Assembly (NCBI GenBank): GCA_016936135.1
Contig: JAFGPP010000127.1
Span: 1-49,502 of the forward strand
Direction: 5' to 3'
Length of the DNA: 49,502 bases
Source of the DNA: Thermoplasmatota archaeon
GTDB taxonomy: Archaea > Thermoplasmatota > E2 > DHVEG-1
The notes under the pieces are model-generated. The model worked only from the letters and a program-made list of their open reading frames with translations, was not told the DNA's origin and ran no database searches. The position numbers were made by a program, and so were the translations under genes. Every line of letters begins with the position of its first letter. The stretch's first letter is position 1. Positions 13,788 through 37,834 of the stretch are shown piece by piece.

Positions 13788-13841
13788 AACAAAAGAAGAA
13801 TAGATATCAAAAGAAATAAAAAATTTATTTTGTTAGCCCAA

Positions 13842-15239
13842 ATGGGGATTTATTTGAATCAGGAAAGAAAAATTGCAATAGTGGGGTGTGGGGCAGGTGG
13901 GGGAACAGCTGCTCAATTCGCTAGAAAAACTGATCGTAAAGCAAGTGTCACGGTTTTTGAGAAAGGTGTTTATCCACAGTATTCAAAATGTGGACTACCA
14001 TATGCAATTTCCGGAAAAATTCCTAGATTTGAAGATTTAATAGAATTTTCTGAAGAATGGTTCAATAAAGCAAAAATTGATTTATTTTTAAGAACAAATG
14101 TAGAGGAAATTGATGCTGATGATAAAATTATAAAAGTAAACAATAACGGAAAATCTCTTGAACATCCCTTTACCTCCATTATATTGGCAACTGGGGCTGA
14201 ACCGTCAATACCGCCTATAAAAAATCTTTCACAGGGCGGTGAATTGGTAAAAGGTGTTGAAATAGTAAGAACAATTGATGATGCAAAAAAAATTAAATCT
14301 CTATTGAAACCCGAAAAAAAAGCGACTGTTATTGGGGCAGGATTAATCGGTCTTGAAATGGCAGACTGTCTTTATGAAAAAAAAATTAAAGTTACAGTTG
14401 TCGAATCACTGCCGGATATTCTGTCAAATACTTTGGATCCTGATATGTCTGCACAGATTAAGGATCAAATATCAGAAAACGTAGACATTTATTTGAATCA
14501 TTTTGCTAATGAAATCAAGCATGAAAATGGAGCGATAAAATCGGTTAATATTCAAGATAGAGAAAGCGGAGCAATTAAGCAAATCCCAACCGACTTGCTG
14601 ATAATAGCCACGGGAACAAAACCAAAAACATCACTTGCAAAAAAGACTGGATGCATGCTTGGAAAACATGGGCACATAATCGTAAACGAACGATCTGAGA
14701 CCTCTATAAAAAATTTGTATGCCGTGGGGGATTGTACAGAATACACGGATTTCTTAACAAAAAAACCTGTCCCGATTGGATTGGGAAGTGTTGTTGTAAG
14801 ACAAGCCATTGCAGCAGGCATTAACGCTGCAGGAGGCAGTTACTCACTGCCTAGTGGAGTATTACAAACCCGCACTACTAGTATTTTTGGATTTGAAATT
14901 GCAGCAGTTGGCCCGACACTTAGTTGTTTTGATAATGAAAACATCGTTACTGGAAAGTTTAACGGATCATCTCTTCCAGAATATTTTCCCGGAGGAAAAC
15001 CAATCACAATAAAGGTTTTTGTAAATGCAGAGTCTGGTGAAATAATCTCAGCCCAAGCAGTGGGTGACAAGGCAGCCCAAAGGATTAACACTTTGGCTTG
15101 TGCAGTATTAGGAAAACTTCAAATAGACTTATTTAAAAAACTCGAAACTGCCTACGCTCCGCCGGTTGCTCCTATCCTGGATGCTGTTACCTTAGCTTGT
15201 GATGTTGTGTCTATGAAATTGAATCGAAAAAAACGATAA
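13842..15239 (+). CDS. CoA-disulfide reductase / NADH oxidase family flavoprotein
   Basis: IAIVGCGAGGG (FAD GxGxxG), single redox Cys in YSKCGLPY, second dinucleotide fold VIGAGLIGLEMA, YAVGDC. I use ATG 13842; the track TTG at 13830 is possible. Confidence 0.75.
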   Translation: MGIYLNQERKIAIVGCGAGGGTAAQFARKTDRKASVTVFEKGVYPQYSKCGLPYAISGKIPRFEDLIEFSEEWFNKAKIDLFLRTNVEEIDADDKIIKVNNNGKSLEHPFTSIILATGAEPSIPPIKNLSQGGELVKGVEIVRTIDDAKKIKSLLKPEKKATVIGAGLIGLEMADCLYEKKIKVTVVESLPDILSNTLDPDMSAQIKDQISENVDIYLNHFANEIKHENGAIKSVNIQDRESGAIKQIPTDLLIIATGTKPKTSLAKKTGCMLGKHGHIIVNERSETSIKNLYAVGDCTEYTDFLTKKPVPIGLGSVVVRQAIAAGINAAGGSYSLPSGVLQTRTTSIFGFEIAAVGPTLSCFDNENIVTGKFNGSSLPEYFPGGKPITIKVFVNAESGEIISAQAVGDKAAQRINTLACAVLGKLQIDLFKKLETAYAPPVAPILDAVTLACDVVSMKLNRKKR

Positions 15240-15240
15240 T

Positions 15241-16380
15241 ATGAAAATTTTTCATGTCGCAGATACTCATTTGGGTTATTCTGCTTACAGGCGAGTTAGT
15301 GCAGATGGAATAAATCAACGTGAGATAGATGTATATGACTCTTTTTCAAGGTTTGTAGATTATTGCTTAGAAAATAAACCTGACTTAATATTGCATGCAG
15401 GCGATCTTTTTGATTCGGTAAGACCAAACAACAGAGCAATAACATTTGCAATAGATCAAATTTTACGTATTTCGGAAAAAAAAATTCCTTTTGTGGTTAT
15501 TGCAGGAAATCACGAACATCCAAAACTAAGAGAAACAGGACATATTTTCAGTATTTTTGATCATCTTGACAATGTCTATCCGGTTTATAGTTCCAGCCAT
15601 GAATCAATACAATTAGATATCGGAAAAGAAAAAGTAACCATTCATCCTGTTCCACAGTCCTCAACAAAAGAAGATTTTGAAAATAATTTAAGACAAATAA
15701 GAAAAGACAATTCCTCGAATTACAATATTTTAATGGTTCATGGCAGTGTCATGGGAATTGAATCATTTTGTATGAATGAGTTTAATGAATTAGTAATTCC
15801 TAAAAAATATCTTGATTCTTATTTCGATTACGTTGCATTAGGTCATTTTCACAAATTTTCAAAAGTTACAAAGAAAGCATATTATTCAGGTTCAACTGAG
15901 TGTTTTAGTTTTAATGAGGCAGGCGAAAAAAAAGGTTTTATTAAAGTTGAATTAAATAAAGAAAAGATTGATCATGAATTTATTCAATTGAAAACTAGGA
16001 ATGTGGTAGATTATCCTTCTATAGAATGCTCGAATTTAACTTTAAACGAGGTAATGAGTAAAATCTACAGATCAATAGAAGATATCGATCCAGCAAATAA
16101 AGTATTTAGAATTGTACTTGACGGGGTCCCATCTCATATATTCAGAGGTCTAGACTTTAGTAGTATCAGAAAGAAGTGTTCAGATTCAATTCATTTTGAG
16201 ATTAGACCTCGAATTTCCACGGAAATGTATAAGAATAGAAATTCCGGATCAAAAATTGATGCATTATCTGAAGAATTTACTCGTTTTATAAATGAAAATG
16301 AAATTCAAGACAAAGACAAATTACTGGCCTTGGGCCTTGATTACATTAAAAAAGTTGAATCAAAAAAAGAGGAAAAATGA
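15241..16380 (+). CDS. mre11: DNA double-strand break repair nuclease Mre11
   Basis: Phosphoesterase motifs HVADTHLG, AGDLFD, IAGNHE, MVHG, LGHFH. Lies 1 nt after the upstream stop and shares an ATGA overlap with rad50. Confidence 0.85.
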   Translation: MKIFHVADTHLGYSAYRRVSADGINQREIDVYDSFSRFVDYCLENKPDLILHAGDLFDSVRPNNRAITFAIDQILRISEKKIPFVVIAGNHEHPKLRETGHIFSIFDHLDNVYPVYSSSHESIQLDIGKEKVTIHPVPQSSTKEDFENNLRQIRKDNSSNYNILMVHGSVMGIESFCMNEFNELVIPKKYLDSYFDYVALGHFHKFSKVTKKAYYSGSTECFSFNEAGEKKGFIKVELNKEKIDHEFIQLKTRNVVDYPSIECSNLTLNEVMSKIYRSIEDIDPANKVFRIVLDGVPSHIFRGLDFSSIRKKCSDSIHFEIRPRISTEMYKNRNSGSKIDALSEEFTRFINENEIQDKDKLLALGLDYIKKVESKKEEK

Positions 16381-18482
16381 TACTGAAAAATCTGCAGCTT
16401 ACAAATTATCGAAAATTCAAAAAAACACGTATAGATTTTCCAGATGGCGTTACTGGTATCGTAGGATTAAATGGAGTAGGAAAATCAACTATTTTTGAGG
16501 CAATTTCTTGGGCAATATATGGGCCTAACGCAGCGAGAACCTCAGCTGATCAAATTAGATTAAACGGCGCTGATCCGTCGGATCCCTGTAGGGTTGAGTT
16601 GGAATTTGTTTTTTCAGATGATTATTACAGAATAACTCGAGAAATGTCTGGAAAAAATCTATCTTCTGCTGCGACGGTTCTTGTCAATGGTCAATGTGCA
16701 GCATCTAGTGTAGAATCTGCCAATAAATATATTCAAAAAAAATTGGGCATGGATTATAAATCATTTTTTACCTCAATTTTTGCAAAACAAAAAGAATTGA
16801 ATGCTTTATCAACAATGAATCCCAGCGAAAGAAGACCACTCATATTAAAAATGTTAGGAATCGATATTTTAGATGAAATAATCAAGACAATTAAGGATGA
16901 TCGGAAAGAAAAATCTGCAATAGTAGAAAAATTGGGTCAGAACCTTTGGGATGAATCAGGAAAAAATAAGATTCAAATACATAAAGACGAACTCAAAGAT
17001 CTTGAAAGCAAAAATAGAATTTTTGATGATACGATAAATGAAATTAATTCTAAAATTAGATTGTTAGTCAGTAGTGTAAAAGAAGCTGAGAATAGACATC
17101 AGGAAATCAAAAATCTATTTGAAGAATTGCAAAAAGAAAAAGACAAACTTGAAGAAATTAGACAAAAATTTGAATCTAAAAAAGCACTTCAAAAAGAAAT
17201 CACAAAATTACAAAATTCAATTCAGACCAGAGAAAAAATACTAAGTGAGACAAGGAATAAATTGAAGAATTTTTCAACAATTGACTCAGATATTGATCAA
17301 ATTGAGAACCGGTTAAAAAAAATAAACGACAGCATCTTGGATTTTGTAAAAAATATTCAACAAAAAAATACAATGGTTGATACAATAAAAGATGAAATTA
17401 AAATTCTAAGGGAAAAAAATATTAAAATTACTAAAATGGGTCCAGAGGCTTCTTGTCCGACATGTGAAAGAGTCCTTGGTAATCAATATAGTAAACTTTT
17501 GGAAAAATTCGGTATTGAAAAAACTGAAAAAGAAAAACGAATAAATAATCACTTGATAGAAATTCAAAAAGATAAAGAAAATCAAGAAAAAATTGATCGT
17601 GAAAAAAAAGCAATAGAAAAGAAAAGAAAATATTTTAATGAGCAATTAAAGGAAAAAGAAAGATTACTGGTAAACATAGACAACATAACATCTGAAATTG
17701 ACAAGGAGAAAAGGGAGAAAAAAGAAAAGGAAAACTTAATTATAAAATTAGATAAAATCACTTTTGATGAGAATCAACATTCAAGCCTGAAATCTAAACT
17801 AGATGAAACCTATGCTAAATATAAGTCTTGTCAAAAGGTTGTAAATGAAAAGAAAGATAATTTAAGTTATGCAAAAATCCATTTGGAACGGGTTAAAAGC
17901 ACTAAACAAGTCCATAATCACAAAATTCAAACGCTTAAGAAAACTATCAAGGAACTAGAAGATTTTGAAAAAATAATGAAAGAGGAGAAAAAAATCGTCC
18001 AGCAGCTCAGCATGCTTAAGGATTTAATGAATTCATTTCGAACAGATTTAATTTCTAGGATCGGACCAACTTTATCTTCATATGCTTCGGAATTTTTCGA
18101 TCTTTTTACAGAGGGTAAATATAGTCAAATCGAACTAGACGAAAATTATGATATTAAGGTTTACGATAGAGGAGAACAGTTTCCAATCAGGAGATTTTCT
18201 GGTGGAGAAGAGGATTTATCAAATTTATGCCTTAGACTTGCTATTTCAGAAATTATTACAGAACGTGCAGGAGGGCTTTTTAATTTTATTATTCTTGATG
18301 AAATATTTGGTTCCCAAGATTCAATCAGGCGTCAAAATATAATGCGAGCACTGAATACTTTATCATCCAAATTTAGGCAAATATTTCTTATCACACACAT
18401 CGATGATGTTAAGAACTACATGGAAAACATTATCTACGTAAGCGAAAATGAAGATGGAACAAGCACCGTAAAAATAGAATAA
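16377..18482 (+). CDS. rad50: DNA double-strand break repair ATPase Rad50 (short, 701 aa)
   Basis: Walker A GLNGVGKST, long K/E coiled coil, zinc hook CPTC at 17454-17465, signature FSGGE, Walker B FIILDEIFG. Confidence 0.85.
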   Translation: MILKNLQLTNYRKFKKTRIDFPDGVTGIVGLNGVGKSTIFEAISWAIYGPNAARTSADQIRLNGADPSDPCRVELEFVFSDDYYRITREMSGKNLSSAATVLVNGQCAASSVESANKYIQKKLGMDYKSFFTSIFAKQKELNALSTMNPSERRPLILKMLGIDILDEIIKTIKDDRKEKSAIVEKLGQNLWDESGKNKIQIHKDELKDLESKNRIFDDTINEINSKIRLLVSSVKEAENRHQEIKNLFEELQKEKDKLEEIRQKFESKKALQKEITKLQNSIQTREKILSETRNKLKNFSTIDSDIDQIENRLKKINDSILDFVKNIQQKNTMVDTIKDEIKILREKNIKITKMGPEASCPTCERVLGNQYSKLLEKFGIEKTEKEKRINNHLIEIQKDKENQEKIDREKKAIEKKRKYFNEQLKEKERLLVNIDNITSEIDKEKREKKEKENLIIKLDKITFDENQHSSLKSKLDETYAKYKSCQKVVNEKKDNLSYAKIHLERVKSTKQVHNHKIQTLKKTIKELEDFEKIMKEEKKIVQQLSMLKDLMNSFRTDLISRIGPTLSSYASEFFDLFTEGKYSQIELDENYDIKVYDRGEQFPIRRFSGGEEDLSNLCLRLAISEIITERAGGLFNFIILDEIFGSQDSIRRQNIMRALNTLSSKFRQIFLITHIDDVKNYMENIIYVSENEDGTSTVKIE

Positions 18483-18493
18483 AAAAGAGCGGT

Positions 18494-19474
18494 TTATTTT
18501 TTGAATCTTAACCGTCTTTTTTTAGGTTTAGAATCAGTTTGATCCGTTTCTTCGTCTTCTTCTAAGCATGGCGTTGTATCCTCTTCTTGGACAGTAGGCG
18601 GGGCTGTAAATTGCTTAGGGGTTGTACTTTTGTGTGTGGTACCTTTAATGGGCGGAACTGAAGAAAAGAGTTTATCAAATATCTGTTTATTTGAATTAAA
18701 CCAGTTTTGCCAGGATTGGTTTTCCTCTCTTAATTGTTTGCATTCACTTTCTGTTTCCTCGTAAAGGTGATAAAGTTTAGTTAGTCTCTCTTTCTCCTTT
18801 TCGTATTGGGCAGAAACATCCTCGAATTTTGTCTTGTATTCTGCATATTTTTCAAATTCCTTTGCCTTTTCTAGAGTTTGTTGGAGAGAGCTGATTGTCT
18901 GTGTTTTTTGATTTAGCTGATCTTTTAAAGTTCTATTTTCCTCTTCGTAGTGTTCCGACATATTGTTTAATTCTTCAAAGCGCTTTTTGTATTGATCAAA
19001 TTCCTTGACCTTGCTTTCATTTTCTTCAAGTTTTGCAGTAAGTGTGTTTATTCTTGTACTTAGATCTTGTTCAAGCTGTCTTTTGGACTCCTCAGCGATT
19101 TTGACCTTGTTTTCAAAATCAGCAAGTTTAGATTCTGTATTGGATAGTTCTTCCTCCTGATTTTTATATGCGTCCCAGAGCTTTATAAGCCTTTCCTTTT
19201 CCTTTTCAAGCTCTTCACTGTATTTTCTTGCACCTTGAAAAGCCTCATCCATTTTTCTCTCGGCTTCACTGATTTGGGACTCGTATTTGTTGATTAACTG
19301 ATTTATGTTACCTAGATTACCTACATCAAGCATAGTTTGGATTCTTGATAAATCCTCAGTACTTTTTGAAAAACTGGTTTTGATATTATCAATCTCAATT
19401 GTAGCTTGACGCAATCTCTCCTCAAGAGAATCTAATTGCTCTGTATTTCTCACAACCATATTTTCCTCACTCAT
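18494..19474 (-). CDS. Coiled-coil protein, function unknown
   Basis: Heptad-rich E/K/Q/L sequence over ~270 aa, with a C-terminal T/P-rich and basic tail (KPKKRRLRFKK). ATG 19474 is preceded by GGAGG; the track GTG at 19492 would include that SD. Confidence 0.5.
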   Translation of the reverse strand: MSEENMVVRNTEQLDSLEERLRQATIEIDNIKTSFSKSTEDLSRIQTMLDVGNLGNINQLINKYESQISEAERKMDEAFQGARKYSEELEKEKERLIKLWDAYKNQEEELSNTESKLADFENKVKIAEESKRQLEQDLSTRINTLTAKLEENESKVKEFDQYKKRFEELNNMSEHYEEENRTLKDQLNQKTQTISSLQQTLEKAKEFEKYAEYKTKFEDVSAQYEKEKERLTKLYHLYEETESECKQLREENQSWQNWFNSNKQIFDKLFSSVPPIKGTTHKSTTPKQFTAPPTVQEEDTTPCLEEDEETDQTDSKPKKRRLRFKK

Positions 19475-19698
19475 GACAAGTATGCCTCCCACTTCTTTGA
19501 GACAAGTATTAATGAAATTGTTGATATTTAAGTATTGTCATAAAATTTAATTAACCGTTGCGATACTTATCTACTCTGAAGCGTTTTGAAGAATCTGATG
19601 GCCTTTTGTTTACTTAACAACTGTACCATTAAACTAATAAACTAATTAAATTATACACAACATGTTAGGGATTCCTAGTTTCTAGGAGGATGAATTGG

Positions 19699-20355
19699 AT
19701 GGGATTATTTGGTATAGGAAGTTTCTCCTCGATTATTCAACGTATTTTTGGTAAAAAACATGCCAAGATCGGAATCTATGGACCACCCAATGTAGGTAAA
19801 ACAACTCTGGCAAATAGGATTTTAAGAGATTGGACGGGAGATATCATGGGGAGCGTATCAGAAATCCCTCATGAGACAAGAGTAGCAAAATGCAAAAAAA
19901 ATGTCAGAGTCGAAAACGGTTCTTCGTCACTGATGATGGATATAATTGATACTCCCGGAATAGCTACAAAAATTGATTATAAAGAATTTATGAATACCTT
20001 TGGTCTCAGTCGCGAAGAAGCTAAAAAACGTGCAAAGGAGGCTACAGAAGGAGTTATTGAATCTATTCGGTGGCTTGAAAATGTTGATGGTGTCCTTCTT
20101 GTTATGGACTCCACTCAGGATCCATTCACACAAGTTAATGTTACAATTATTGGGAATCTTGAAGCAAGAAATCTTCCCGTGCTTATTGCTGCAAACAAAA
20201 TTGATATGGAAGACTCCAGTCCGGCAACCTTGAAATCGGCATTTCCACAACATCCGGTCATTCCTGTTAGTGCCTTGACAGGTTATAATGCTGAAAATTT
20301 GTATTCTCACATGGTAAAACAATTTAGTAAACGGAAACGAAGACGGGGTAGATAA
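19699..20355 (+). CDS. Archaeal GTPase (TRAFAC class) of the GTPase/DUF2073/Zn-ribbon operon
   Basis: G1 GPPNVGKT, G3 DTPG, G4 NKID, G5 SAL. AGGAGG (19684-19689) abuts the first ATG (19690), so the second ATG (19699) is the better-spaced start, giving MGLFGIGSFSSIIQRIFGKK. Confidence 0.75.
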   Translation: MGLFGIGSFSSIIQRIFGKKHAKIGIYGPPNVGKTTLANRILRDWTGDIMGSVSEIPHETRVAKCKKNVRVENGSSSLMMDIIDTPGIATKIDYKEFMNTFGLSREEAKKRAKEATEGVIESIRWLENVDGVLLVMDSTQDPFTQVNVTIIGNLEARNLPVLIAANKIDMEDSSPATLKSAFPQHPVIPVSALTGYNAENLYSHMVKQFSKRKRRRGR

Positions 20356-20357
20356 TC

Positions 20358-20735
20358 ATGGTGAATAAGGATAAAGGAATCTCGGTCAATCTTGTATCAA
20401 GACAAAAATTGGAGGAATTTTCTACAGATGAAAAATTAGAGTTTATTCTTAATGAAATTAGAAACGGAAAAGTATTGGTTTTGGAAAATGGACTTACTTC
20501 TGTTGAACAGGCCAGTCTGATTCAACAGACAATGGAGAAAATCGAACAAGACACTTTTATAGGCATTGAAATGGAAGGCTATGGTGAGGAGAAAGCGTCT
20601 TTTTTACAAAAAATTTTGGGAAAAATAAAGAAACCAAGAATGACTGTTATCGGCCCGGCTGATCTATTAAAAACTGTTCGCAAGGATAGCAATATGATAC
20701 AAACTAGGATAATTCCAGGTAGAGGAGCTAGGTAA
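20358..20735 (+). CDS. DUF2073-like conserved archaeal protein
   Basis: 125 aa, starting 3 nt after the GTPase stop. I recall this size and genomic position as the COG3365/DUF2073 partner of this GTPase. No catalytic motif seen. Confidence 0.45.
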   Translation: MVNKDKGISVNLVSRQKLEEFSTDEKLEFILNEIRNGKVLVLENGLTSVEQASLIQQTMEKIEQDTFIGIEMEGYGEEKASFLQKILGKIKKPRMTVIGPADLLKTVRKDSNMIQTRIIPGRGAR

Positions 20736-21286
20736 TGCCCCATCAATGTTTGAAATGCGGCCATGTATTTGAAGAAGGTTCATCTCAGCTTCTAAAAGGT
20801 TGTCCACGGTGTGGGGGAAATCGGTTTTTCTTCACAAAAGAGCCCATTGGCGATGAAGAACGAAACGCAATAGTTGAAAAAGTTGGAAAGGACATAAATT
20901 CAACGATATTGGATTTGATGCAATTAGATCAGAAGGATGTAATTGATCAGTCAGGTAACTGGCTAAAATTGAAACCAAAGGACGTTCGAAAGGCTTTTAA
21001 ACAGCATTTGCCGGAAAAAAACGAGGAAAAAGAAGAAATTTTTGACTCAAATAAAGATATTGGCAATATAATCGATGAGGAATATAGAAGAAAAATAATT
21101 GACAAAATTAAGACGGAGTCAGAAGGACCAGATGTTCCTGAAACAATCGATATTGAAAAACCTGGACAATATAATATCAATTTGAAAGGACTGCTTGAAA
21201 AAGAGCCCATTATTATTCAGAAAGACGGGTCATACATAATTCATCTACCATCAATTTTTAAATTAATAAATGAAAAGAAGATATGA
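20735..21286 (+). CDS. Zn-ribbon protein (DUF2072/COG3364-like)
   Basis: N-terminal CLKCGH...CPRCGG zinc ribbon, K/E-rich linker, conserved-looking C-terminus. TAATG stop/start overlap with the upstream gene. Confidence 0.55.
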   Translation: MPHQCLKCGHVFEEGSSQLLKGCPRCGGNRFFFTKEPIGDEERNAIVEKVGKDINSTILDLMQLDQKDVIDQSGNWLKLKPKDVRKAFKQHLPEKNEEKEEIFDSNKDIGNIIDEEYRRKIIDKIKTESEGPDVPETIDIEKPGQYNINLKGLLEKEPIIIQKDGSYIIHLPSIFKLINEKKI

Positions 21287-25684: not shown

Positions 25685-28591
25685 ATGGGGGATAGAAATA
25701 CAATGAGGAGGAATGATAAACTCGTCGTATTGATTGGAGTAATCGTGTTGATTTTGGCTTCAATAAGCATATACTTTTGGAGTCCTGTATTTACTTCTAC
25801 AGAGGTGGCAAACGTAGATGATATCTGTGGCGTTACTGGTAAATTTATTAGAAAACCCAATTCTATAACTGTTTTGGATGTATGTCCCTTCTATCCTCTT
25901 ATTGCTACTCCACTAGTAGTAAATTATGACGAAGACAATGTGCAATATATTAAACCTTTATATGTTAAGAATGCAACAGAAACCTCCCAAGCAATTTCAA
26001 GGGCAGAGTTTCAAATCGGATTACAGTCAGAAGAATTTATTGACGGATTGAAATCCCCTAAAGAACATTCTATTTATCTTACAAAAAAATATTGGGATAA
26101 AAGTGATGCTGCTTTGTTAATAAAATATGATAAAGAAGGATATGAGTTAGGTGTTGCTGCAACCCCTCTTGCTTCCTATCTGTCCATTCCAGTAATCGTA
26201 ACTGACGAGATGGACCAAGAAGTAAAGCATTTACTTGATGATCTTGAGGTAAAATATTCTCTTATCTGTGGAAATCTTTCAGGTTATGGAAAATCTCTTG
26301 AATTTTCAAATATTGATGAAATTGTTAATACATCAATTTCTATTGTAAGACAAAAATTTGGAAATGATCCACAGTATATCACAATTGCAAATCCCCGCGA
26401 TGCATGGCCACCAACTGTAATAGATGTTACTAATAAATTTTATGAGGGCACTTTAGAGTCGGGCAGTTTACTTCCTTCTCAGATTTTAACTGCAATCCAA
26501 CAAAAAACAGAAGTCATTAAATTTACAATTCCAGAAGATTACAAATACGCTTTGGTAAAAATAGAATTAAGAAATCTAGAGGATCCGGTAAATATTGAAA
26601 AATTTGGTGATGTTGTTACGATCCAAGGCAGTCTCATAGGATTTGCTAGAACTAGCGCAAGTCCAGCAGAACGAGACTTAAATGGCAACGTTGAATATGA
26701 CAGATTTTATTATGAAACTATATTGTATGATATGGGGGGAGAAGAATTTGACATAAAATTAAGTGCTAGTTTCCACACAGTTGATTCGGCCAAATACAAA
26801 CTTTTTGTTACAATGGAAGAATTGAGCGATCCGTATTATCCTCTAACGAAAGGCCTGTCTTCTATTGCACCGTATTTGACTGCGTATCATAAGGGAATTG
26901 CATTTGCAAAACCAGAATTTGCATTTGCCGCAGATGATGATGTATTATTGGATGGGGAAAAATTACCTGGAAATACACAAGTTATGAAAAATCCAATTCT
27001 CATACCAGTGGTTAACAGACATGTATATAACAATATTCACAAACCGTTCAATGAATTGCTTGCAAAAATTAGAGGAATAGATATATCCAATGAAAAGGGC
27101 ATCGAAAGCCTAACAAAGGATTGTAAAATAGATCCTTTTTATGTGGCGCTTGTGGGGGATACTACGATGGTGCCGCAGTACTACTATAGAAGTCCCCATA
27201 ATGATCCCTTTACCAGTCAGGACAAAATGTATGGAACTGGATGTCCTAGTGATTTCATTTATGGAAATATTGATCCTGAGACATACTTTATGCAACCATA
27301 TGTTGGTAAGAAAGATGTTGAAAATGATAAATATTCAAAATATCCTGAAGTAGAAAATATTGTAGGTAGAATCACCGGATGGGATATTCAGGATGCAAGT
27401 GCCTTAATTGTCAGAACCATTTTTTATAATGATGTAATTGATAAATTGGGAGAATGGAAAAATAATGCAGTAGTTATGTCAGGGGCAGGTTTAGAATTCC
27501 AGAAATTACCGTTTTTCAACACAGTTTATAACCTTCTCGATAAACATGAACCAATGAAATTCCCTACGGGGGAGCAACATTTCCTAAATATACGTACATC
27601 AAAAAATATACAGGAAGGGGATTTTAACGTTGAGATCGCTGAACGTGGGAAAGCTCAAAGAGTGGGTTATACAGACGAGGCTTTATGGGAAATTAAACAA
27701 GATGGTTTACTTAATATGCTTTTCTTCCCACGTTGGTTGGTAAAACTTGCTCAGGGATTTGAAAGCGTTAATTCACTTTTCAGCCCGAATTGGTGGAGGG
27801 AAGCATTGAGTGATCAATCTGGAGTTAGGGGAGGCGAATTACAGGAAAGCAGTAATTTGATTCTGACTAATTCACACGGAATATGGTTTGGATTTGAACA
27901 TGGAGATTCAATGATGTATCTTCTTGGCGGTCCACCGATTCTGTATCAGCTCATCGGTAGATTTTTCCCAGTTATAGGGAGATTTTCTACTCCACTAGAT
28001 AGTATTGGCAGTTATGACGTCCGCTCGGTTTCAGACATGGAGCTTGGGCCATCCGTAATGTTTGTGGAGGGATGTGGATGTGGAAAAATTGACAGTGTTC
28101 ATCCTGCAAATACAATTGCAAATGCGTATCTGCATTCTGGGGTAAATGCCTACATTTCCCCAACAACATATTCAGCTATTGGCGGATATCTAGAACCTCG
28201 TCCAAAGTGGCCATTGCTTGATGACGGAGTGGGTTTTGGGATCCTTGGATACTTAAATGCGGCAATTAACGCAAGAAAAGGAGTATATCCAGACGTACAT
28301 TTCTGTGGAGTGATATTTGAGGATTCATATCAGCAATTGATTAATGGAGATGTTGATGTTGGCACAGCTCTTAGAAATGCAAAAAATAATTTTCTACCAG
28401 AGCAGGTTAGTAAAAAATACTTATGGACCCCTCCATTGGGAGAACAACTAGATTCAGTTCCAACTTATACACTTACCACTGGTCAGAGAGGAGATGAGGT
28501 AATAATTGAGAAGTATTGTACAATTTATCAGTTGAATTTACTAGGAGATCCAGCCTTTAATCCATATGAGCCATGTAATGAGGGCAGCTAA
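25685..28591 (+). CDS. Membrane-anchored/secreted gingipain-like (peptidase C25, clan CD) cysteine peptidase, paralog 1
   Basis: N-terminal TM/signal (LVVLIGVIVLILASISIYFW). C25-like N-subdomain: YVALVGDTTMVPQYYY, PSDFIYGNID, VGRITGWDIQDASALIVRTIFY. Candidate catalytic His-Gly is LILTNSHG (His codon 27875-27877) and candidate Cys is MFVEGCGCG (Cys codon 28073-28075). Both are conserved in paralog 2. Confidence 0.6.
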   Translation: MGDRNTMRRNDKLVVLIGVIVLILASISIYFWSPVFTSTEVANVDDICGVTGKFIRKPNSITVLDVCPFYPLIATPLVVNYDEDNVQYIKPLYVKNATETSQAISRAEFQIGLQSEEFIDGLKSPKEHSIYLTKKYWDKSDAALLIKYDKEGYELGVAATPLASYLSIPVIVTDEMDQEVKHLLDDLEVKYSLICGNLSGYGKSLEFSNIDEIVNTSISIVRQKFGNDPQYITIANPRDAWPPTVIDVTNKFYEGTLESGSLLPSQILTAIQQKTEVIKFTIPEDYKYALVKIELRNLEDPVNIEKFGDVVTIQGSLIGFARTSASPAERDLNGNVEYDRFYYETILYDMGGEEFDIKLSASFHTVDSAKYKLFVTMEELSDPYYPLTKGLSSIAPYLTAYHKGIAFAKPEFAFAADDDVLLDGEKLPGNTQVMKNPILIPVVNRHVYNNIHKPFNELLAKIRGIDISNEKGIESLTKDCKIDPFYVALVGDTTMVPQYYYRSPHNDPFTSQDKMYGTGCPSDFIYGNIDPETYFMQPYVGKKDVENDKYSKYPEVENIVGRITGWDIQDASALIVRTIFYNDVIDKLGEWKNNAVVMSGAGLEFQKLPFFNTVYNLLDKHEPMKFPTGEQHFLNIRTSKNIQEGDFNVEIAERGKAQRVGYTDEALWEIKQDGLLNMLFFPRWLVKLAQGFESVNSLFSPNWWREALSDQSGVRGGELQESSNLILTNSHGIWFGFEHGDSMMYLLGGPPILYQLIGRFFPVIGRFSTPLDSIGSYDVRSVSDMELGPSVMFVEGCGCGKIDSVHPANTIANAYLHSGVNAYISPTTYSAIGGYLEPRPKWPLLDDGVGFGILGYLNAAINARKGVYPDVHFCGVIFEDSYQQLINGDVDVGTALRNAKNNFLPEQVSKKYLWTPPLGEQLDSVPTYTLTTGQRGDEVIIEKYCTIYQLNLLGDPAFNPYEPCNEGS
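26850..26941 (+). repeat. Near-identical nucleotide block shared with 29859-29950 (copy A)
   Basis: 51 nt (26850-26900) are identical to 29859-29909. The next 41 nt carry 3 mismatches. The block encodes GLSSIAPYLTAYHKGIAFAKPEFAFAADDD. Confidence 0.85.
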
Positions 28592-28651
28592 AACTATTTT
28601 TATTCTTAATTTTAAATTATTTTTCAATTTTGAATAACGTTTAAATAATAT

Positions 28652-31507
28652 TTGTTTAATAATAATTATCAGGTGATTCATTTGCATAAAAAAATAAGAC
28701 AACCAGCGACGATTCTTTTTGGAATGTTTATTATTTTCATGTCATTTGGTGCAATAACAGTTTTACCTCAGAAATCAAATGGCGAAGTTAAAGACAACTC
28801 ATTTGGGTATGTTAATTACGATATTAAATCAAATTTTTCACCAGATTTGTTATCCGCAATAACTGTTTCTGATAAAAATCCGTTTTATGCCCTAATTGCA
28901 ACTCCTCTGGCAGTCAGATATGATAATGAAGGAAACCAGTTTATTGCACCGCTGTATGTAAAAAATTTGACCAATCCTTCAAAAGCTATAATTAGAGCTG
29001 AACAACAAGTAGGTCTCTATACTGATTTTACAATTGGTGATACTCTCCCACCAAAGGACATCTCTTTGTTTGTTGCTGATATGTTTTGGGACGATACCAA
29101 TACTGCTCTGGTTATTAAGGACGACGAATCTGGCTATAATCTTGGTGTTGTCGCCACGCCAATTGCTTCATATTTGGGGATTCCTGTTATTGTAACGGAT
29201 GTTATCGATCATCATGTTAAATCAGTTTTAGACGCTCTTGGTGTAGTAGGTCTATATATTTGTGGCGATCTTCATACTTCATCTTATTGGGTTAAGGAAT
29301 TTGAAAGCACCGAAGAAATTATTGAAGAGTGTATGACTATAATACATCACATATTTGGCGATTCTATCCAATATATTACGATTGCAAACCCTTTAGATGT
29401 GAATCAACCAAAAGTTCTTGACAAAATCATATATGAGTTTTCTGGAAACCTTGGCTCAATGATGTTTCTTCCTACACAAACTATTGGTATGTTGCTTAAT
29501 GGCCAGATGAAAACCCATAGATTCGATATACCTTCAGATTACAAATACGCCAAACTAATTCTTGATCTTGAAAATAAAAATCCTGAGAATGCTGAGAGAT
29601 TGGGGGATAAGGTTTCGGTTATTGTGAGTAGTCCAGATGGCCCTAGATATTTTTTTGTCTCAACTGATGGAGGATTACCAGTTCGCGATATGAACGGTGA
29701 CATCATTGAAGATAAAATTCACTATGAAATAACCTTGTACAATAAACCTGGAAATTATGGTATTCAAGTACTTGGACAGTGGGGTGCACAAAAGGTAGGT
29801 TCCTATGAGGCAATTGTTACAATAGAAAAAATTGAATCGCCTGTTGTTCCTTTGATGGAAGGCCTGTCTTCTATTGCACCGTATTTGACTGCGTATCATA
29901 AGGGAATTGTATTTGCAAAACCGGAATTTGCATTTGCTGCAGATGATGATATTCTTAACAATGGTGAGCCATGTCCTGGCGTAACTCAACCTGGATCAAA
30001 TCCCTTGCTCGTAGAACCGTCCAATGCACATACTATGCAGATTCATCAGGAACTCAACAATCTACTTGCTGAAATGGCCGAAATTTCCACCTCAAATTTG
30101 CAAGGACTAAGGAATTATTACTATGATAATCCCGTATATATTGCCATAGCTGCTGATCCGACCATGGTTCCCATGTATTTTTATTATAACCCCGACGGAA
30201 GACTTGATGCAAAAGCTTACATGATGGGTTTTGCACTTCCAAGTGATTTTATGTGGGGGGATATTGATCCAAAGCCGGGTGATCTTGAAAATAATTCATT
30301 TAGTACGTGGCCCAGTATGGAAAATATTGTGGGAAGAGTAACCGGACGTGATGTACAGGATTGCAGTGCCCTTATTGCAAGAACTATCTTTTATGAAAAT
30401 ATTATTGAAAAAATGGATGACTGGAAAGACACTGCCCTTGTTCAAACTGGTTGCGGTCTTGAATTTCAAAACCTGCCAATTATAACAAAGTTAAGTCAAA
30501 TGTTGTTTAGTGGTAGAGGGGAACCTACTAAATTTCCGACTGGAGAAAGTACCTTTATTAATTTACGTTTAAAGGAAAAAATGGAGGGAGGCTACACCAA
30601 TGTTAAAAATACGTTTTTACTTGAATCCCAAAGAGAAGGTTTTACTGAAGATGAATTGAAGGACATAAAAAATGCAGGAATTCTAAATAGATTGCTATTC
30701 CCAAAGAAATTTATCGAGTTATTAATGTCTGATGAGAAAGTTACAGGTGGGCAATCACACCTTGACAGTAGCTTGATTTTCACCTTTGCTCACGGCTCAT
30801 TTAACCTTTTTGAACATGGTGACATATTTGTTGATTCGCGAGGTTTTCCTTTTGTTACTGCGATTTCACGTATATATCCACAGATTAGAAGCGGATTATC
30901 AAGCAAAGGATCTTACAGTATTCGTTCTATTGAAAATATGAATTACGGACCATCGGCGGTATTTGTAGAAAGTTGCATAACAGGTAGAACAGATGGAATT
31001 CCTGGTGAGAATGTATTGTCTCAGACATTTATACATGCAGGGGTAAATGCCTATATTGGTGCTACAAGAGTAACTGCGGACCCTGGCTACCTTGAGCCAC
31101 GTCCTTTACCTGGAGGGGTCGGCATTGGGATACTAGGATTAATGAAAGCAATGCTTGATTTAAAATTATATTCAAAATATCCCGATCTTCATTTTGGGGC
31201 GGTAATCGCAGAAGATTTTATCAACGAATTGATCGAAAATGATGCAACAACTGGTCTTGCGCTGAGAAATGCTAAAAATGTATATCTTGAAAAGGATGCT
31301 AATTCCACTTTTCTATGGACACCTCCTCTATCCCTCTCGACAGGCAACAGCATTATTGATCAACTGTGCTTATCTTCCTTAAACCTAGAACAATATAACG
31401 GGAATGTTAGAACCAAAGTTTTAGATAAAAAATATGTTGCACTGCACGAATTCACTCTTTATGGGGATCCAGCTTTCAATCCATATCAGTCGGTAAACGA
31501 AGGCTGA
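28652..31507 (+). CDS. Membrane-anchored/secreted gingipain-like (peptidase C25, clan CD) cysteine peptidase, paralog 2
   Basis: Collinear with paralog 1, with roughly half the residues identical by eye. Motifs: YIAIAADPTMVPMYFYY, PSDFMWGDID, VGRVTGRDVQDCSALIARTIFY, FTFAHG, FVESCITG, C-terminal GDPAFNPY. Start uncertain: TTG 28652, or TTG 28682 preceded by AGGTGA. Confidence 0.6.
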   Translation: MFNNNYQVIHLHKKIRQPATILFGMFIIFMSFGAITVLPQKSNGEVKDNSFGYVNYDIKSNFSPDLLSAITVSDKNPFYALIATPLAVRYDNEGNQFIAPLYVKNLTNPSKAIIRAEQQVGLYTDFTIGDTLPPKDISLFVADMFWDDTNTALVIKDDESGYNLGVVATPIASYLGIPVIVTDVIDHHVKSVLDALGVVGLYICGDLHTSSYWVKEFESTEEIIEECMTIIHHIFGDSIQYITIANPLDVNQPKVLDKIIYEFSGNLGSMMFLPTQTIGMLLNGQMKTHRFDIPSDYKYAKLILDLENKNPENAERLGDKVSVIVSSPDGPRYFFVSTDGGLPVRDMNGDIIEDKIHYEITLYNKPGNYGIQVLGQWGAQKVGSYEAIVTIEKIESPVVPLMEGLSSIAPYLTAYHKGIVFAKPEFAFAADDDILNNGEPCPGVTQPGSNPLLVEPSNAHTMQIHQELNNLLAEMAEISTSNLQGLRNYYYDNPVYIAIAADPTMVPMYFYYNPDGRLDAKAYMMGFALPSDFMWGDIDPKPGDLENNSFSTWPSMENIVGRVTGRDVQDCSALIARTIFYENIIEKMDDWKDTALVQTGCGLEFQNLPIITKLSQMLFSGRGEPTKFPTGESTFINLRLKEKMEGGYTNVKNTFLLESQREGFTEDELKDIKNAGILNRLLFPKKFIELLMSDEKVTGGQSHLDSSLIFTFAHGSFNLFEHGDIFVDSRGFPFVTAISRIYPQIRSGLSSKGSYSIRSIENMNYGPSAVFVESCITGRTDGIPGENVLSQTFIHAGVNAYIGATRVTADPGYLEPRPLPGGVGIGILGLMKAMLDLKLYSKYPDLHFGAVIAEDFINELIENDATTGLALRNAKNVYLEKDANSTFLWTPPLSLSTGNSIIDQLCLSSLNLEQYNGNVRTKVLDKKYVALHEFTLYGDPAFNPYQSVNEG
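29859..29950 (+). repeat. Near-identical nucleotide block shared with 26850-26941 (copy B)
   Basis: Same block in paralog 2, at an offset of 3009 nt. Confidence 0.85.
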
Positions 31508-36118: not shown

Positions 36119-37834
36119 ATGAACAGGAGATTGTGTAAAGTAGGCTATAGAAAAAATCTATATTTATTGATTGTAATTTTGATTTCCCTTCAATTTATTG
36201 GGATTTTTGCAGAAGCAGATGATGGCCTAGAAGTAGTTGAACAATACTCACCGATCTTTTATTTTGAAGGAGATGAGAAATGTTTCCCTGTAGATGCATC
36301 ATATCATATAGAAAATGCCAATTTATACAGGTTTTTAGAAGATGGCAAAATCTTGGTAACTGATGATTTATCTACAGTTAATCTTTCGTATTATACTAAC
36401 GACGATTATATTTTAGATAATGGATTGGGCACGGTTTATGATAATAACATAATAAACGATTATCAAAGCAAAATCGACCAGTTGGGCTACACAGTTTATT
36501 ATCGTTCAGTCAAAGAAAATGAAATCGAAGTAATTCAATATTGGATGTTTTACGCCTTCAATAAAGGAGAATTAAACCAACATGAAGGCGATTGGGAGAT
36601 GGTGCAAGTCGTACTTTCTAATGGAATTCCTACAGAGTGCATGTATAGTCAACACCATGGTGGACAAAAGGCAAGTTGGGATCAAGTAGAAAAAGAATCA
36701 ACTCACATTAAAGTTTATGTGGCCCGTGGAAGTCATGCAAATTATCTTAGATCATTTTCCGGAAAATTTGGAATTGCCAGTGATATTGTGGCAGCAAACG
36801 GATTTATTTTGAATCCTGGAGAATATAATCTGGTATCAATTGAAGAACATGATTGGTCACAATTCGGTGGAAGATGGGGAGAATTTAACAGTTATGAGGA
36901 CATTTTAAGGGGAAAGGCTGGACCGCAAGGTCCTAAATTTAGAGAAAATGGTGTTATGTGGAATAATCCCATTGTGTGGGGAAACAGTCTGACACAATCA
37001 ATTGATTTAATCTTTTTTCTAGAATGGTTCCTGTACTACATTGTAATCATATTTCTCTTGATAGCCTTAATTTCCTTTGTTTTAATCGGATTTAGAATTT
37101 TTAAAAGATACAAAAAAACAGGTTTGGGTCCAAGAATAGTCTCAATGCTTTATATAGATGGAATTAACCTAAAAAGCATAGGAAATATTGTTACAATCAT
37201 CGGAATTATTGTTGCATTTATTGCCCTTTTCAACCCCTGGTATAGTGTTTCAACAAACATTAGCCTCCAAGAATTTAATACCCAAGGCATGGTAAAGCTC
37301 GTGTCAGTTGATGGATTAAATGGTATAATGGTTAATTTTCTTGACCCGAATAGTGGTCCTGTTCAGCTGGGTGCGCTTTCTCTACCTTTTTCCTTATTCA
37401 TAGCTATTGGTATTGCTTATTTAGTAATCGCTACAATTGGTATATCCAACAGCAAAAAATTAGGTAAAAAATACATATTTAGAGGAATTAAATTGATAGT
37501 GCCGATAATTTTTATTATAATTGTAGTACTTTCGATTGGTTTTGTGATTGACAATTATCCGCTTGGTGAGTTAGACCCCGGAGTAGAACAAATCTTTGGT
37601 AGCATTACATCTTCTCCCTTGGGCGGTCAGAAAACAGTTTATCTAAATTCACTTGGGGGAAGCGAGCAGATCAGCATAAACTGGGGTTTGGATTTGGGCG
37701 GACAATTGTTGATTCTATCATCCGTAATGTTGATTATTGCCGGAATAATAGAAATTTTTGCCAATTCGGATTTTTATTTAGAAAAAACACCTTCTCCTTC
37801 AAAAAATATTCAAAATAAGGAAAAATTAGTCTAG
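36119..37834 (+). CDS. Vps62/DUF946-like domain protein with a C-terminal multi-TM region
   Basis: Signal/anchor, then YSPIFYFEGDEKCFPV, YWMFYAFNKGELNQHEGDWEMVQV, YSQHHGGQKASW, ARGSHANY. This matches my recollection of the Vps62/DUF946 signature (W.FY.FN...H.GDWE.V...SQH.GG.W...GSHA.Y). About 5 hydrophobic helices in the C-terminal half. Confidence 0.55.
   Translation: MNRRLCKVGYRKNLYLLIVILISLQFIGIFAEADDGLEVVEQYSPIFYFEGDEKCFPVDASYHIENANLYRFLEDGKILVTDDLSTVNLSYYTNDDYILDNGLGTVYDNNIINDYQSKIDQLGYTVYYRSVKENEIEVIQYWMFYAFNKGELNQHEGDWEMVQVVLSNGIPTECMYSQHHGGQKASWDQVEKESTHIKVYVARGSHANYLRSFSGKFGIASDIVAANGFILNPGEYNLVSIEEHDWSQFGGRWGEFNSYEDILRGKAGPQGPKFRENGVMWNNPIVWGNSLTQSIDLIFFLEWFLYYIVIIFLLIALISFVLIGFRIFKRYKKTGLGPRIVSMLYIDGINLKSIGNIVTIIGIIVAFIALFNPWYSVSTNISLQEFNTQGMVKLVSVDGLNGIMVNFLDPNSGPVQLGALSLPFSLFIAIGIAYLVIATIGISNSKKLGKKYIFRGIKLIVPIIFIIIVVLSIGFVIDNYPLGELDPGVEQIFGSITSSPLGGQKTVYLNSLGGSEQISINWGLDLGGQLLILSSVMLIIAGIIEIFANSDFYLEKTPSPSKNIQNKEKLV

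Follow-up and report, generated by a model that had tools for sequence, protein, structure and literature searches.

The window analyzed here, i.e. the 49,502-nt stretch at positions 1–49,502 of contig JAFGPP010000127.1 (assembly GCA_016936135.1; coordinates are 1-based and refer to the forward strand) of a Thermoplasmatota archaeon, harbors an arvA-arvB-arvC operon, a gene system that is already known under the names oapABC, dipABC and arcoABC and that is present here in an ordinary copy. Based on functionally characterized orthologs, we presume that the operon most likely encodes a Min-like self-organizing oscillator which keeps the FtsZ ring off the cell poles; it would do for archaea what the Min system does for bacteria, placing the FtsZ ring, and would also affect vesicle release. 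The identity of the genes, their conserved linkage, the sequence elements for each step of this mechanism and the presence of FtsZ in the genome are established here, as far as the sequence can tell. A preliminary description of this DNA, made from the sequence alone, had taken the GTPase/DUF2073/DUF2072 triad to be conserved in many Euryarchaeota and to have no assigned function. The conservation is borne out below by domain matches and synteny. The second statement is out of date: the genes were named first OapABC, then ArvABC for a role in vesicle formation (PMC10927574), and most recently DipABC or ArcoABC for the positioning of the divisome. This long-standing 'conserved unknown' has since been solved, and its correct filing keeps the locus from being called uncharacterized. 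The details that we add to the published picture, and that are absent from those papers, are the lack of origin linkage in sediment Thermoplasmatota, a polybasic tail of ArvA, and a K+/HAS signature (described below) in the GTPase, the last of which offers a testable idea for the mechanism by which hydrolysis responds to DipB and the membrane.

The host genome is an uncultured metagenome-assembled genome (MAG) of 1.71 Mb in 153 contigs, 86% complete, and the DNA of the window is present in sediment metagenomes, one of them probably its source; among the data sets listed as containing it, there are no RNA data. According to the list of open reading frames (ORFs) and the raw sequence, the three genes lie on the forward strand. 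The first, arvA (dipA, arcoA; formerly oapA; 19699–20355), encodes a single-domain GTPase of 218 aa which matches Pfam MMR_HSR1 (E-value 7e-15), belongs to a family distinct from the EngA-like proteins, and yields an AlphaFold2 (AF2) model with a predicted local distance difference test (pLDDT) value of 86. The second, arvB (dipB, arcoB; oapB; 20358–20735), encodes a DUF2073 protein of 125 aa; it matches Pfam OapB (PF09846, formerly DUF2073) over profile positions 1–103 of 104 with an E-value of 7.1e-34 (116.3 bits, cut-off 27), and the same model also finds its targets in the Haloferax volcanii and M. acetivorans controls. The third, arvC (dipC, arcoC; oapC; 20735–21286), encodes a Zn-ribbon protein of 183 aa that matches Pfam OapC (PF09845, formerly DUF2072; E-value 7.9e-26, 91.3 bits, cut-off 23) and whose look-alikes in the Atlas are exclusively OapC clusters.

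The genes are packed as tightly as first described. The stop codon of arvA (TAA, 20353–20355) is followed by 'tc' and the ATG of arvB at 20358, i.e. by a gap of 2 nt, and the last A of the arvB stop codon (TAA, 20733–20735) is the first base of the arvC ATG, so that the two genes overlap by 1 nt in the sequence TAATG. For arvA, candidate start codons are found at 19690 and 19699. A Shine-Dalgarno-like AGGAGG (19684–19689, forward strand) abuts the first of them with no spacer and lies 9 nt upstream of the second; furthermore, 12 out of 12 class-level relatives use the start codon equivalent to MGL..., mostly preceded by an (A)GGAGG box. Because of this spacing and the agreement of all relatives, we regard the MGLFG start at 19699 as correct, in line with the Shine-Dalgarno-supported start (MGLFGIGSF...) chosen originally. 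Inspection of the sequence further upstream reveals an A/T-rich box, TTAAATTATA (19646–19655, forward strand; 44–53 nt upstream of the start codon), as a possible archaeal TATA element of the operon.

When 1.8 billion cluster representatives are searched, ArvA falls into a compact family: 47 representatives of about 200–220 aa are found below 1e-30, and EngA-like proteins (420–480 aa) enter near 1e-11 at best. In some representatives (P0123–P0129, P0137) an ArvA-type G domain forms the C-terminus of a protein of 281–679 aa; these may be N-terminal fusions or artefacts of gene calling. Sequence identity of ArvA is 64–87% to the nearest named records, which are Thermoplasmatota MAGs, and 55–65% to orthologs from Archaeoglobi, Methanosarcinales, Methanomicrobiales, Methanocellales and Altiarchaeota; within this range, Archaeoglobus sp. 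and Archaeoglobaceae reach 62–65% and Methanosarcinales 59–63%, in a comparison with orthologs other than the characterized HVO_3014 and A. fulgidus DipA. The arvB gene is present as a single copy in the host genome, and OapB is found in 35 out of 41 related genomes.

For the linkage of the three genes, we surveyed 80 loci of ArvA orthologs (Thermoplasmatota, Archaeoglobi, Methanosarcinales, Methanomicrobiales and Altiarchaeota) with a flank of 2.5 kb. The order A-B-C is kept in all 12 loci of the class-level relatives, where neighboring genes are separated by about -4 to +6 nt. Of the 80 loci, 77 have ArvB as the immediate downstream neighbor of ArvA, and about 58 have ArvC within 2.5 kb. The linkage is far beyond chance, and this neighborhood census, which the preliminary description had called for, shows it to be conserved across archaeal lineages. 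The exceptions are confined to particular groups: Methanosarcinaceae have no ArvC in the 2.5-kb flank of ArvA, and Methanoregula loci (L090, L092) lack ArvB, with ArvC directly succeeding ArvA. Both exceptions, including the loss of DipB in Methanoregula, match those reported in PMC13228585 and hence represent an independent check on that census.

What these genes do is known from orthologs. Deletion of any gene of dipABC leads to minicells and to misplaced FtsZ1, FtsZ2 and SepF, and DipA, DipB and DipC all oscillate from pole to pole (PMC13228585). The same system, studied under the name Arco, co-occurs with FtsZ1 across archaea and is reported to be absent from Poseidoniia (10.64898/2026.07.23.738820); its sediment source and its gingipain genes would speak against placing the present genome in that class. 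Applied to the present proteins, the mechanism would run as follows. In its GTP-bound state ArvA (DipA), a small HAS-type GTPase, would sit on the membrane by means of its N-terminal amphipathic helix and would carry the Zn-ribbon protein ArvC (DipC), which would bind FtsZ1 and block its polymerization. ArvB (DipB), a SepF-like dimer, would bind ArvA, stimulate GTP hydrolysis and thus free ArvA from the membrane. The Arv proteins would thereby shuttle between the poles, with FtsZ assembling where the time-averaged amount of ArvC is lowest; the changes in vesicle or minicell release of Haloferax mutants would either follow from this mechanism or be a further product of it. By analogy with these orthologs, oscillation, GTP-dependent membrane binding and FtsZ antagonism are to be expected in this organism, too. 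The preliminary description had suggested a GTPase switch at the membrane whose Zn-ribbon effector binds nucleic acids or proteins; in its protein-binding form, this essentially matches the experiments on the orthologs from H. volcanii and A. fulgidus (PMC13228585; 10.64898/2026.07.23.738820).

The element that would attach ArvA to the membrane is an amphipathic, basic segment at its N-terminus (MGLFGIGSFSSIIQRIFGKK, residues 1–20; 19699–19758, forward strand), supported by the AF2 helix, the hydrophobic moment and conservation in orthologs. In the model, in which the G domain is confident, residues 9–17 form a helix that is unpacked from the core and has a pLDDT below 50. The hydrophobic moment (muH) of the best 11-mer is 0.64, a value attained by 8% of shuffled sequences and hence moderately unusual only. 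Since the moment of the single protein is not striking, the argument rests on family-wide conservation: an amphipathic basic N-terminal segment is found in 80 out of 80 ArvA orthologs, with a median muH of 0.72. The segment noticed at first reading is thereby substantiated, with the reservation given by the shuffles. The A. fulgidus ortholog, DipA, is an active GTPase and attaches to liposomes in the presence of GTP but not of GDP; the mutation L7R in the N-terminal helix abolishes this attachment (PMC13228585); likewise, deletion of residues 1–20 of ArcoA, or of residues 89–97 of ArcoB, leads to a loss of both membrane binding and function (10.64898/2026.07.23.738820).

A Met-Gly start candidate stands at the expected position in 57 of the 80 ArvA orthologs (here at 19699–19704), among them members of Archaeoglobi, Methanosarcinales and Thermoplasmatota. 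In Arf, Gly2 is the site of N-myristoylation; to our knowledge, there is no archaeal N-myristoyltransferase, and the frequent Met-Gly start of the family may merely reflect the removal of Met.

ArvB contains a basic amphipathic loop or helix (SFLQKILGKIKKPR, residues 81–94; 20598–20639, forward strand) with a net charge of +5 over the surrounding 20 residues. Its best 9-mer has a muH of 0.68, and the element is conserved in 13 out of 13 relatives. Judging from its sequence, it would correspond to the membrane-binding element of DipB and ArcoB of H. volcanii (residues 85–99 and 89–97, respectively). The dimeric DipB raises the GTPase activity of DipA, detaches DipA from the membrane, and itself binds the membrane by a basic loop (PMC13228585). 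In a profile search of the PDB with ArvB, SepF was not found; the best match (E-value 0.47) is unrelated.

ArvC follows the layout described for DipC and ArcoC, in which a linker that varies joins a Zn ribbon to a conserved module at the C-terminus. The N-terminal Zn ribbon (20747–20821, forward strand) is formed by Cys5, Cys8, Cys23 and Cys26, all of them invariant, and is modeled with a pLDDT of 72–80 over residues 1–50. The charged linker (about residues 60–130) varies in length among the aligned relatives. It is followed by the C-terminal module (residues 134–175; 21134–21259, forward strand), which is modeled as beta strands with low confidence and in which P135, E136, G144, Y146, L153, L154, I159, I160, K163, G165, Y167, L171, P172, S173 and F175 are invariant or nearly so. 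Among PDB profiles, ArvC obtains a weak match to the RNA polymerase subunit Rpo12/P (E-value 0.036), which is not meaningful.

Binding among the three proteins has been measured for the Arco system: ArcoA binds ArcoB and ArcoC with dissociation constants from the sub-micromolar range to about 1 uM; ArcoC also binds FtsZ1, whose filaments are then lost (10.64898/2026.07.23.738820). In a complex prediction of A+B+C, ArvB scores 0.52, compared with 0.00 for the best control and 0.00 when ArvA is swapped for an unrelated protein; at least 56% of the contacts are shared between runs, and the pLDDT of the partner is at least 63. The mark applied to such scores is reached by 58 out of 80 solved complexes and by 2 out of 110 mismatched pairs, but a score at or below 0.60 is what just 7 of the 80 solved complexes, and both of the passing mismatches, reach it with. 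Hence, the prediction lends weak support to an ArvA-ArvB complex, in agreement with the measured binding of ArcoA and ArcoB.

The host genome contains two FtsZ paralogs (FtsZ_C matches with E-values of 5e-37 and 2e-25), one of which may be FtsZ1, and division in this organism would be FtsZ-based. Several points nevertheless weigh against the oscillator. The model rests on two non-peer-reviewed preprints from 2026, which deal with Haloferax and Archaeoglobus only, and the peer-reviewed study (PMC10927574) attributes to the same genes a different role, the formation of extracellular vesicles. Oscillation from pole to pole presupposes a cell shape with some geometry that can be sensed. The function is read, by analogy, from the sequence of an uncultured MAG, and the SepF-like fold of ArvB is likewise taken over from its orthologs. 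To these points we add the modest hydrophobic moment of the ArvA N-terminus mentioned above, and the poor model of ArvC as a whole (pLDDT 59, predicted template modeling score 0.31). Finally, SepF was not found in the host assembly, which is 86% complete; we attribute this to the incompleteness of the assembly, because SepF is present in 15 out of 15 high-quality relatives. ArvB as a substitute for SepF was considered and discarded.

The alternative that follows from the peer-reviewed work is that the primary role of the system lies in the active budding of extracellular vesicles: the helix of ArvA would insert in the manner of Arf1 and deform the membrane, with ArvB as exchange factor and ArvC as GTPase-activating protein. 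OapABC of H. volcanii (HVO_3014/3013/3012) was renamed ArvABC in 2024 (PNAS; PMC10927574), based on the enrichment of ArvA in extracellular vesicles, on a predicted Arf-like N-terminal amphipathic helix, and on counts of vesicles, which are 2.9-fold lower in the arvA knockout, 3.5-fold higher on overexpression of ArvA, 3.1-fold lower in the arvB knockout and 1.65-fold higher in the arvC knockout (PMC10927574). The conservation of the helix throughout the ArvA family fits this proposal as well. However, the biochemistry of the orthologs assigns different parts to the partners: DipB, which stimulates hydrolysis and strips DipA from membranes, acts in the opposite way to an exchange factor, and ArcoC acts on FtsZ1 filaments instead of on the GTPase. 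Moreover, the minicells and misplaced Z rings seen in all three deletions could on their own alter the counts of particles in supernatants. The co-occurrence with FtsZ1 also speaks against budding as the primary role, and an ArvA identity of 55–65% between phylum-level lineages fits a core function of the cell cycle better than an accessory device for communication. We therefore consider vesicle budding unlikely as the primary role.

A further possibility is that the oscillator itself has been modified in this family. ArvA ends with a polybasic tail, SKRKRRRGR (residues 210–218; 20326–20352, forward strand), which is lineage-specific. A net charge of at least +5 over the last 14 residues is found only in the 13 closest Thermoplasmatota loci; elsewhere the charge ranges from -3 to +4, and outside Thermoplasmatota from -3 to +2. 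Among these sequences, the tail is restricted to this clade of Thermoplasmatota. The second peculiarity is the divergently transcribed gene upstream of arvA (18494–19492, reverse strand), which encodes a coiled-coil protein of 332 aa; this confirms the divergent coiled-coil protein of the preliminary description, given there as 330 aa. It is kept upstream of arvA in the 14 closest Thermoplasmatota loci (41–65% identity) and is not found there in other lineages. In its protein, the motif E(L/Y)EKEKERLxKL(W/Y) occurs in duplicate; the protein further comprises an amphipathic helix rich in Trp and Phe (WQNWFNSNKQIFDKLF, of the form WxNWFxxNxxxFxKLF), an acidic linker that varies, and a polybasic end that is conserved (KKKKRLRFKK). 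Such a composition suggests a membrane-associated protein of the filament type. According to such a scenario, the tail gained by ArvA would serve as a second, electrostatic anchor to membrane or DNA, and the crescentin-like coiled-coil protein would be a fourth component peculiar to this lineage, e.g. a landmark on the membrane in the manner of DivIVA or MinJ; independently of this, K+ would activate the ArvA family as a whole. We regard this combination as a quite unlikely one. As a general component of the system, the coiled-coil protein was rejected, given its presence in the 14 closest loci only and its Atlas look-alikes, which are generic rods such as crescentin.

The third alternative concerns the GTPase alone. 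ArvA could be an ordinary ribosome-assembly GTPase of the Era/EngA/EngB type with unrelated passenger genes downstream, an outcome that the preliminary description had named as one that would overturn its proposal. Its top Pfam match, MMR_HSR1, carries the description '50S ribosome-binding GTPase'; Arf (PF00025) obtains 1.7e-5, limited to residues 125–174, with no stretch passing individually. The profile of the ArvA family finds Der/EngA (6e-24), TrmE (2e-16) and Era (4e-15) in the PDB ahead of Arf (4e-10), i.e. these three outscore Arf by 6 to 14 orders of magnitude. Among the structures, the best Foldseek match to the AF2 model is Era (3iev, E-value 6e-12), and Arf is not among the top 50 matches. 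VIA-align likewise places Era first (Z 20.8), followed by MnmE and EngA (19.4) and by Arl proteins (17.5–18.1; Arl3 18.1, Arl1 17.7); this spread is small, and structural models alone would not decide the placement of ArvA. Yet ArvA lacks a KH domain, a second (tandem) G domain, tRNA-modification domains and any RNA-binding extension, and as a single domain of 218 aa it possesses what these families do not: the N-terminal membrane helix, a helical insert of about 35 residues after G3 (helices 94–101 and 105–128 in the AF2 model) and a switch-I motif of its own, (I/V)PHETR. In NCBIfam, ArvA remains well short of all equivalog cut-offs (for example Era, 49 bits with 237 required; Der, 56 with 307 required). 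Together with the OapB linkage in 77 of the 80 loci, which contradicts the notion of passenger genes, and with the membrane binding and division phenotype of the orthologs, this makes a ribosome-assembly role scarcely credible.

The question of whether ArvA is Arf-like must be answered in two parts. As a functional analogy, the comparison holds: like Arf and Sar1, ArvA has an amphipathic helix at its N-terminus and, after it, basic residues that lead straight into strand 1 and the P-loop, and its ortholog from A. fulgidus binds membranes in a GTP-dependent manner. As a statement of family membership it fails. A phmmer search of the PDB with residues 1–45 returned P-loop matches only (RecA, adenylate kinase, Der, AAA ATPases), with no Arf or Sar1; in the profile search, a 'GTP-binding protein' chain (8oun; best stretch 8–40, 3e-9) and Sar1 (6vs4; 6–47, 1e-7) are weak in comparison with the 6e-24 of Der. 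Kinship of the N-terminus to Arf by sequence was rejected, and the resemblance is therefore treated as analogy. The motifs GPPNVGKTT (G1), DTPG (G3) and NKID (G4) were confirmed, and the original remark that G3 and G4 are not Arf-like is accurate, G3 being DTPGI instead of the DVGGQ with its catalytic Gln.

The motifs point to the Era side. K+-activated, Gln-less (HAS) GTPases of the TrmE-Era-EngA-YihA-Septin-like (TEES) superfamily are characterized by an Asn in G1 (GxxNxGK[ST]), a second Asn five residues past the lysine of G1, and a hydrophobic side chain at the position of the catalytic Gln (PMC3466195). ArvA has the G1 form GxPNxGK[ST]xxxN of Era, EngA (Der) and MnmE, with both asparagines of the K+ site (Asn31 and Asn39) within G1/Walker A (GPPNVGKTTLAN, residues 28–39; 19780–19815, forward strand), and in G3/Walker B (residues 84–88; 19948–19962, forward strand) DTPG is followed by Ile at the position of the catalytic Gln of Ras and Arf, as in those families. 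The HAS signature (N31, N39, I88) is thus complete, a point which also favored the ribosome-assembly reading. Both asparagines are present in 80 out of 80 orthologs, as is DxPG followed by L, I, V or M; G28, N31, G33, K34 and N39 are invariant in an alignment of 15 members, and the columns GPPNVGKT (28–35) and DTPG (84–87, with D84 of Walker B) are invariant in that alignment and in the 80 orthologs. Because the motifs decide where structure does not, we tentatively place ArvA on the Era/HAS side. The Arco preprint terms ArcoA both 'Era-like' and a sister to SR-beta in an Arf-related group (10.64898/2026.07.23.738820); the latter position, that of an Arf/SR-beta sister, conflicts with the Era-like one found here. 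We propose that hydrolysis in the ArvA family may be assisted by K+, as in MnmE, FeoB and EngA, and that stimulation by ArvB or the membrane may work through an ordered K-loop, not through an arginine finger. Neither K+ nor the missing catalytic Gln is mentioned in PMC13228585 and 10.64898/2026.07.23.738820, and all assays there contained KCl (100–150 mM).

According to the Pfam names OapB and OapC, the genes would be 'origin-associated proteins' of replication initiation, a reading that goes back to the H. volcanii operon next to orc1/oriC1 and could invoke the DNA binding of DipB in vitro (PMC13228585), but that is highly improbable, since it is contradicted in this lineage by the gene positions and since the original mutant study, as cited in PMC10927574, is said to have found no replication function. 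In the window, Pfam scans revealed no Orc1/Cdc6 among the large ORFs, and the Cdc6_C match of the host genome sits on a different contig. The nearest orc1 in relatives lies about 75 kb (G002, same contig), about 220 kb (G003, single contig, circularity assumed) and about 350 kb (G009, single contig) from arvABC. Hence, arvABC is not origin-associated in this lineage.

Some further genes of the window are mentioned briefly. At 13830–18482 (forward strand), a gene for a pyridine-nucleotide disulphide oxidoreductase is packed against an mre11-like (Metallophos) and a rad50-like gene (701 aa, AAA_23/SMC_N); herA and nurA were not seen in Pfam scans of the flanking ORFs. At 25685–31507 (forward strand), two tandem proteins of about 950–970 aa contain Peptidase_C25 (gingipain-type) domains, a pair that fits protein-degrading sediment Thermoplasmatota. 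A protein of 571 aa (36119–37834, forward strand) obtains a weak Vps62 match (PF06101; E-value 1.9e-5, 23.6 bits against a cut-off of 22.1), and the next ORF, of 399 aa, has no Pfam match.

Compared with the Dip/Arco/Arv systems of Haloferax and Archaeoglobus, the locus contains the same three families in identical order and tight packing: a GTPase of about 210–220 aa that has GPPNxGKT, DTPG and an amphipathic helix at its N-terminus, a DUF2073 protein with a basic amphipathic loop, and the Zn-ribbon protein, in a host that would divide by FtsZ. It differs from H. volcanii in the length of ArvC, 183 aa versus 330 aa and short as in other non-halophiles, and in its position, which is not beside orc1/oriC; from both Haloferax and Archaeoglobus it differs in the polybasic C-terminal tail of ArvA and in the divergent coiled-coil neighbor. 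The experiments were carried out in those two genera, whereas the Thermoplasmatota system is known from its genes alone.

The likeness to MinD-MinE-MinC, as drawn in the preprints, is one of design. In both systems a nucleotide-dependent membrane binder carries the FtsZ antagonist, a small dimeric activator triggers hydrolysis and release, and binder and activator both touch the membrane by amphipathic elements. However, there is no kinship in sequence or fold: an Era/EngA-like GTPase stands in place of the ParA/MinD ATPase, the membrane helix is N-terminal in ArvA but C-terminal in MinD, the activator would be SepF-like, and the antagonist is a Zn-ribbon protein.

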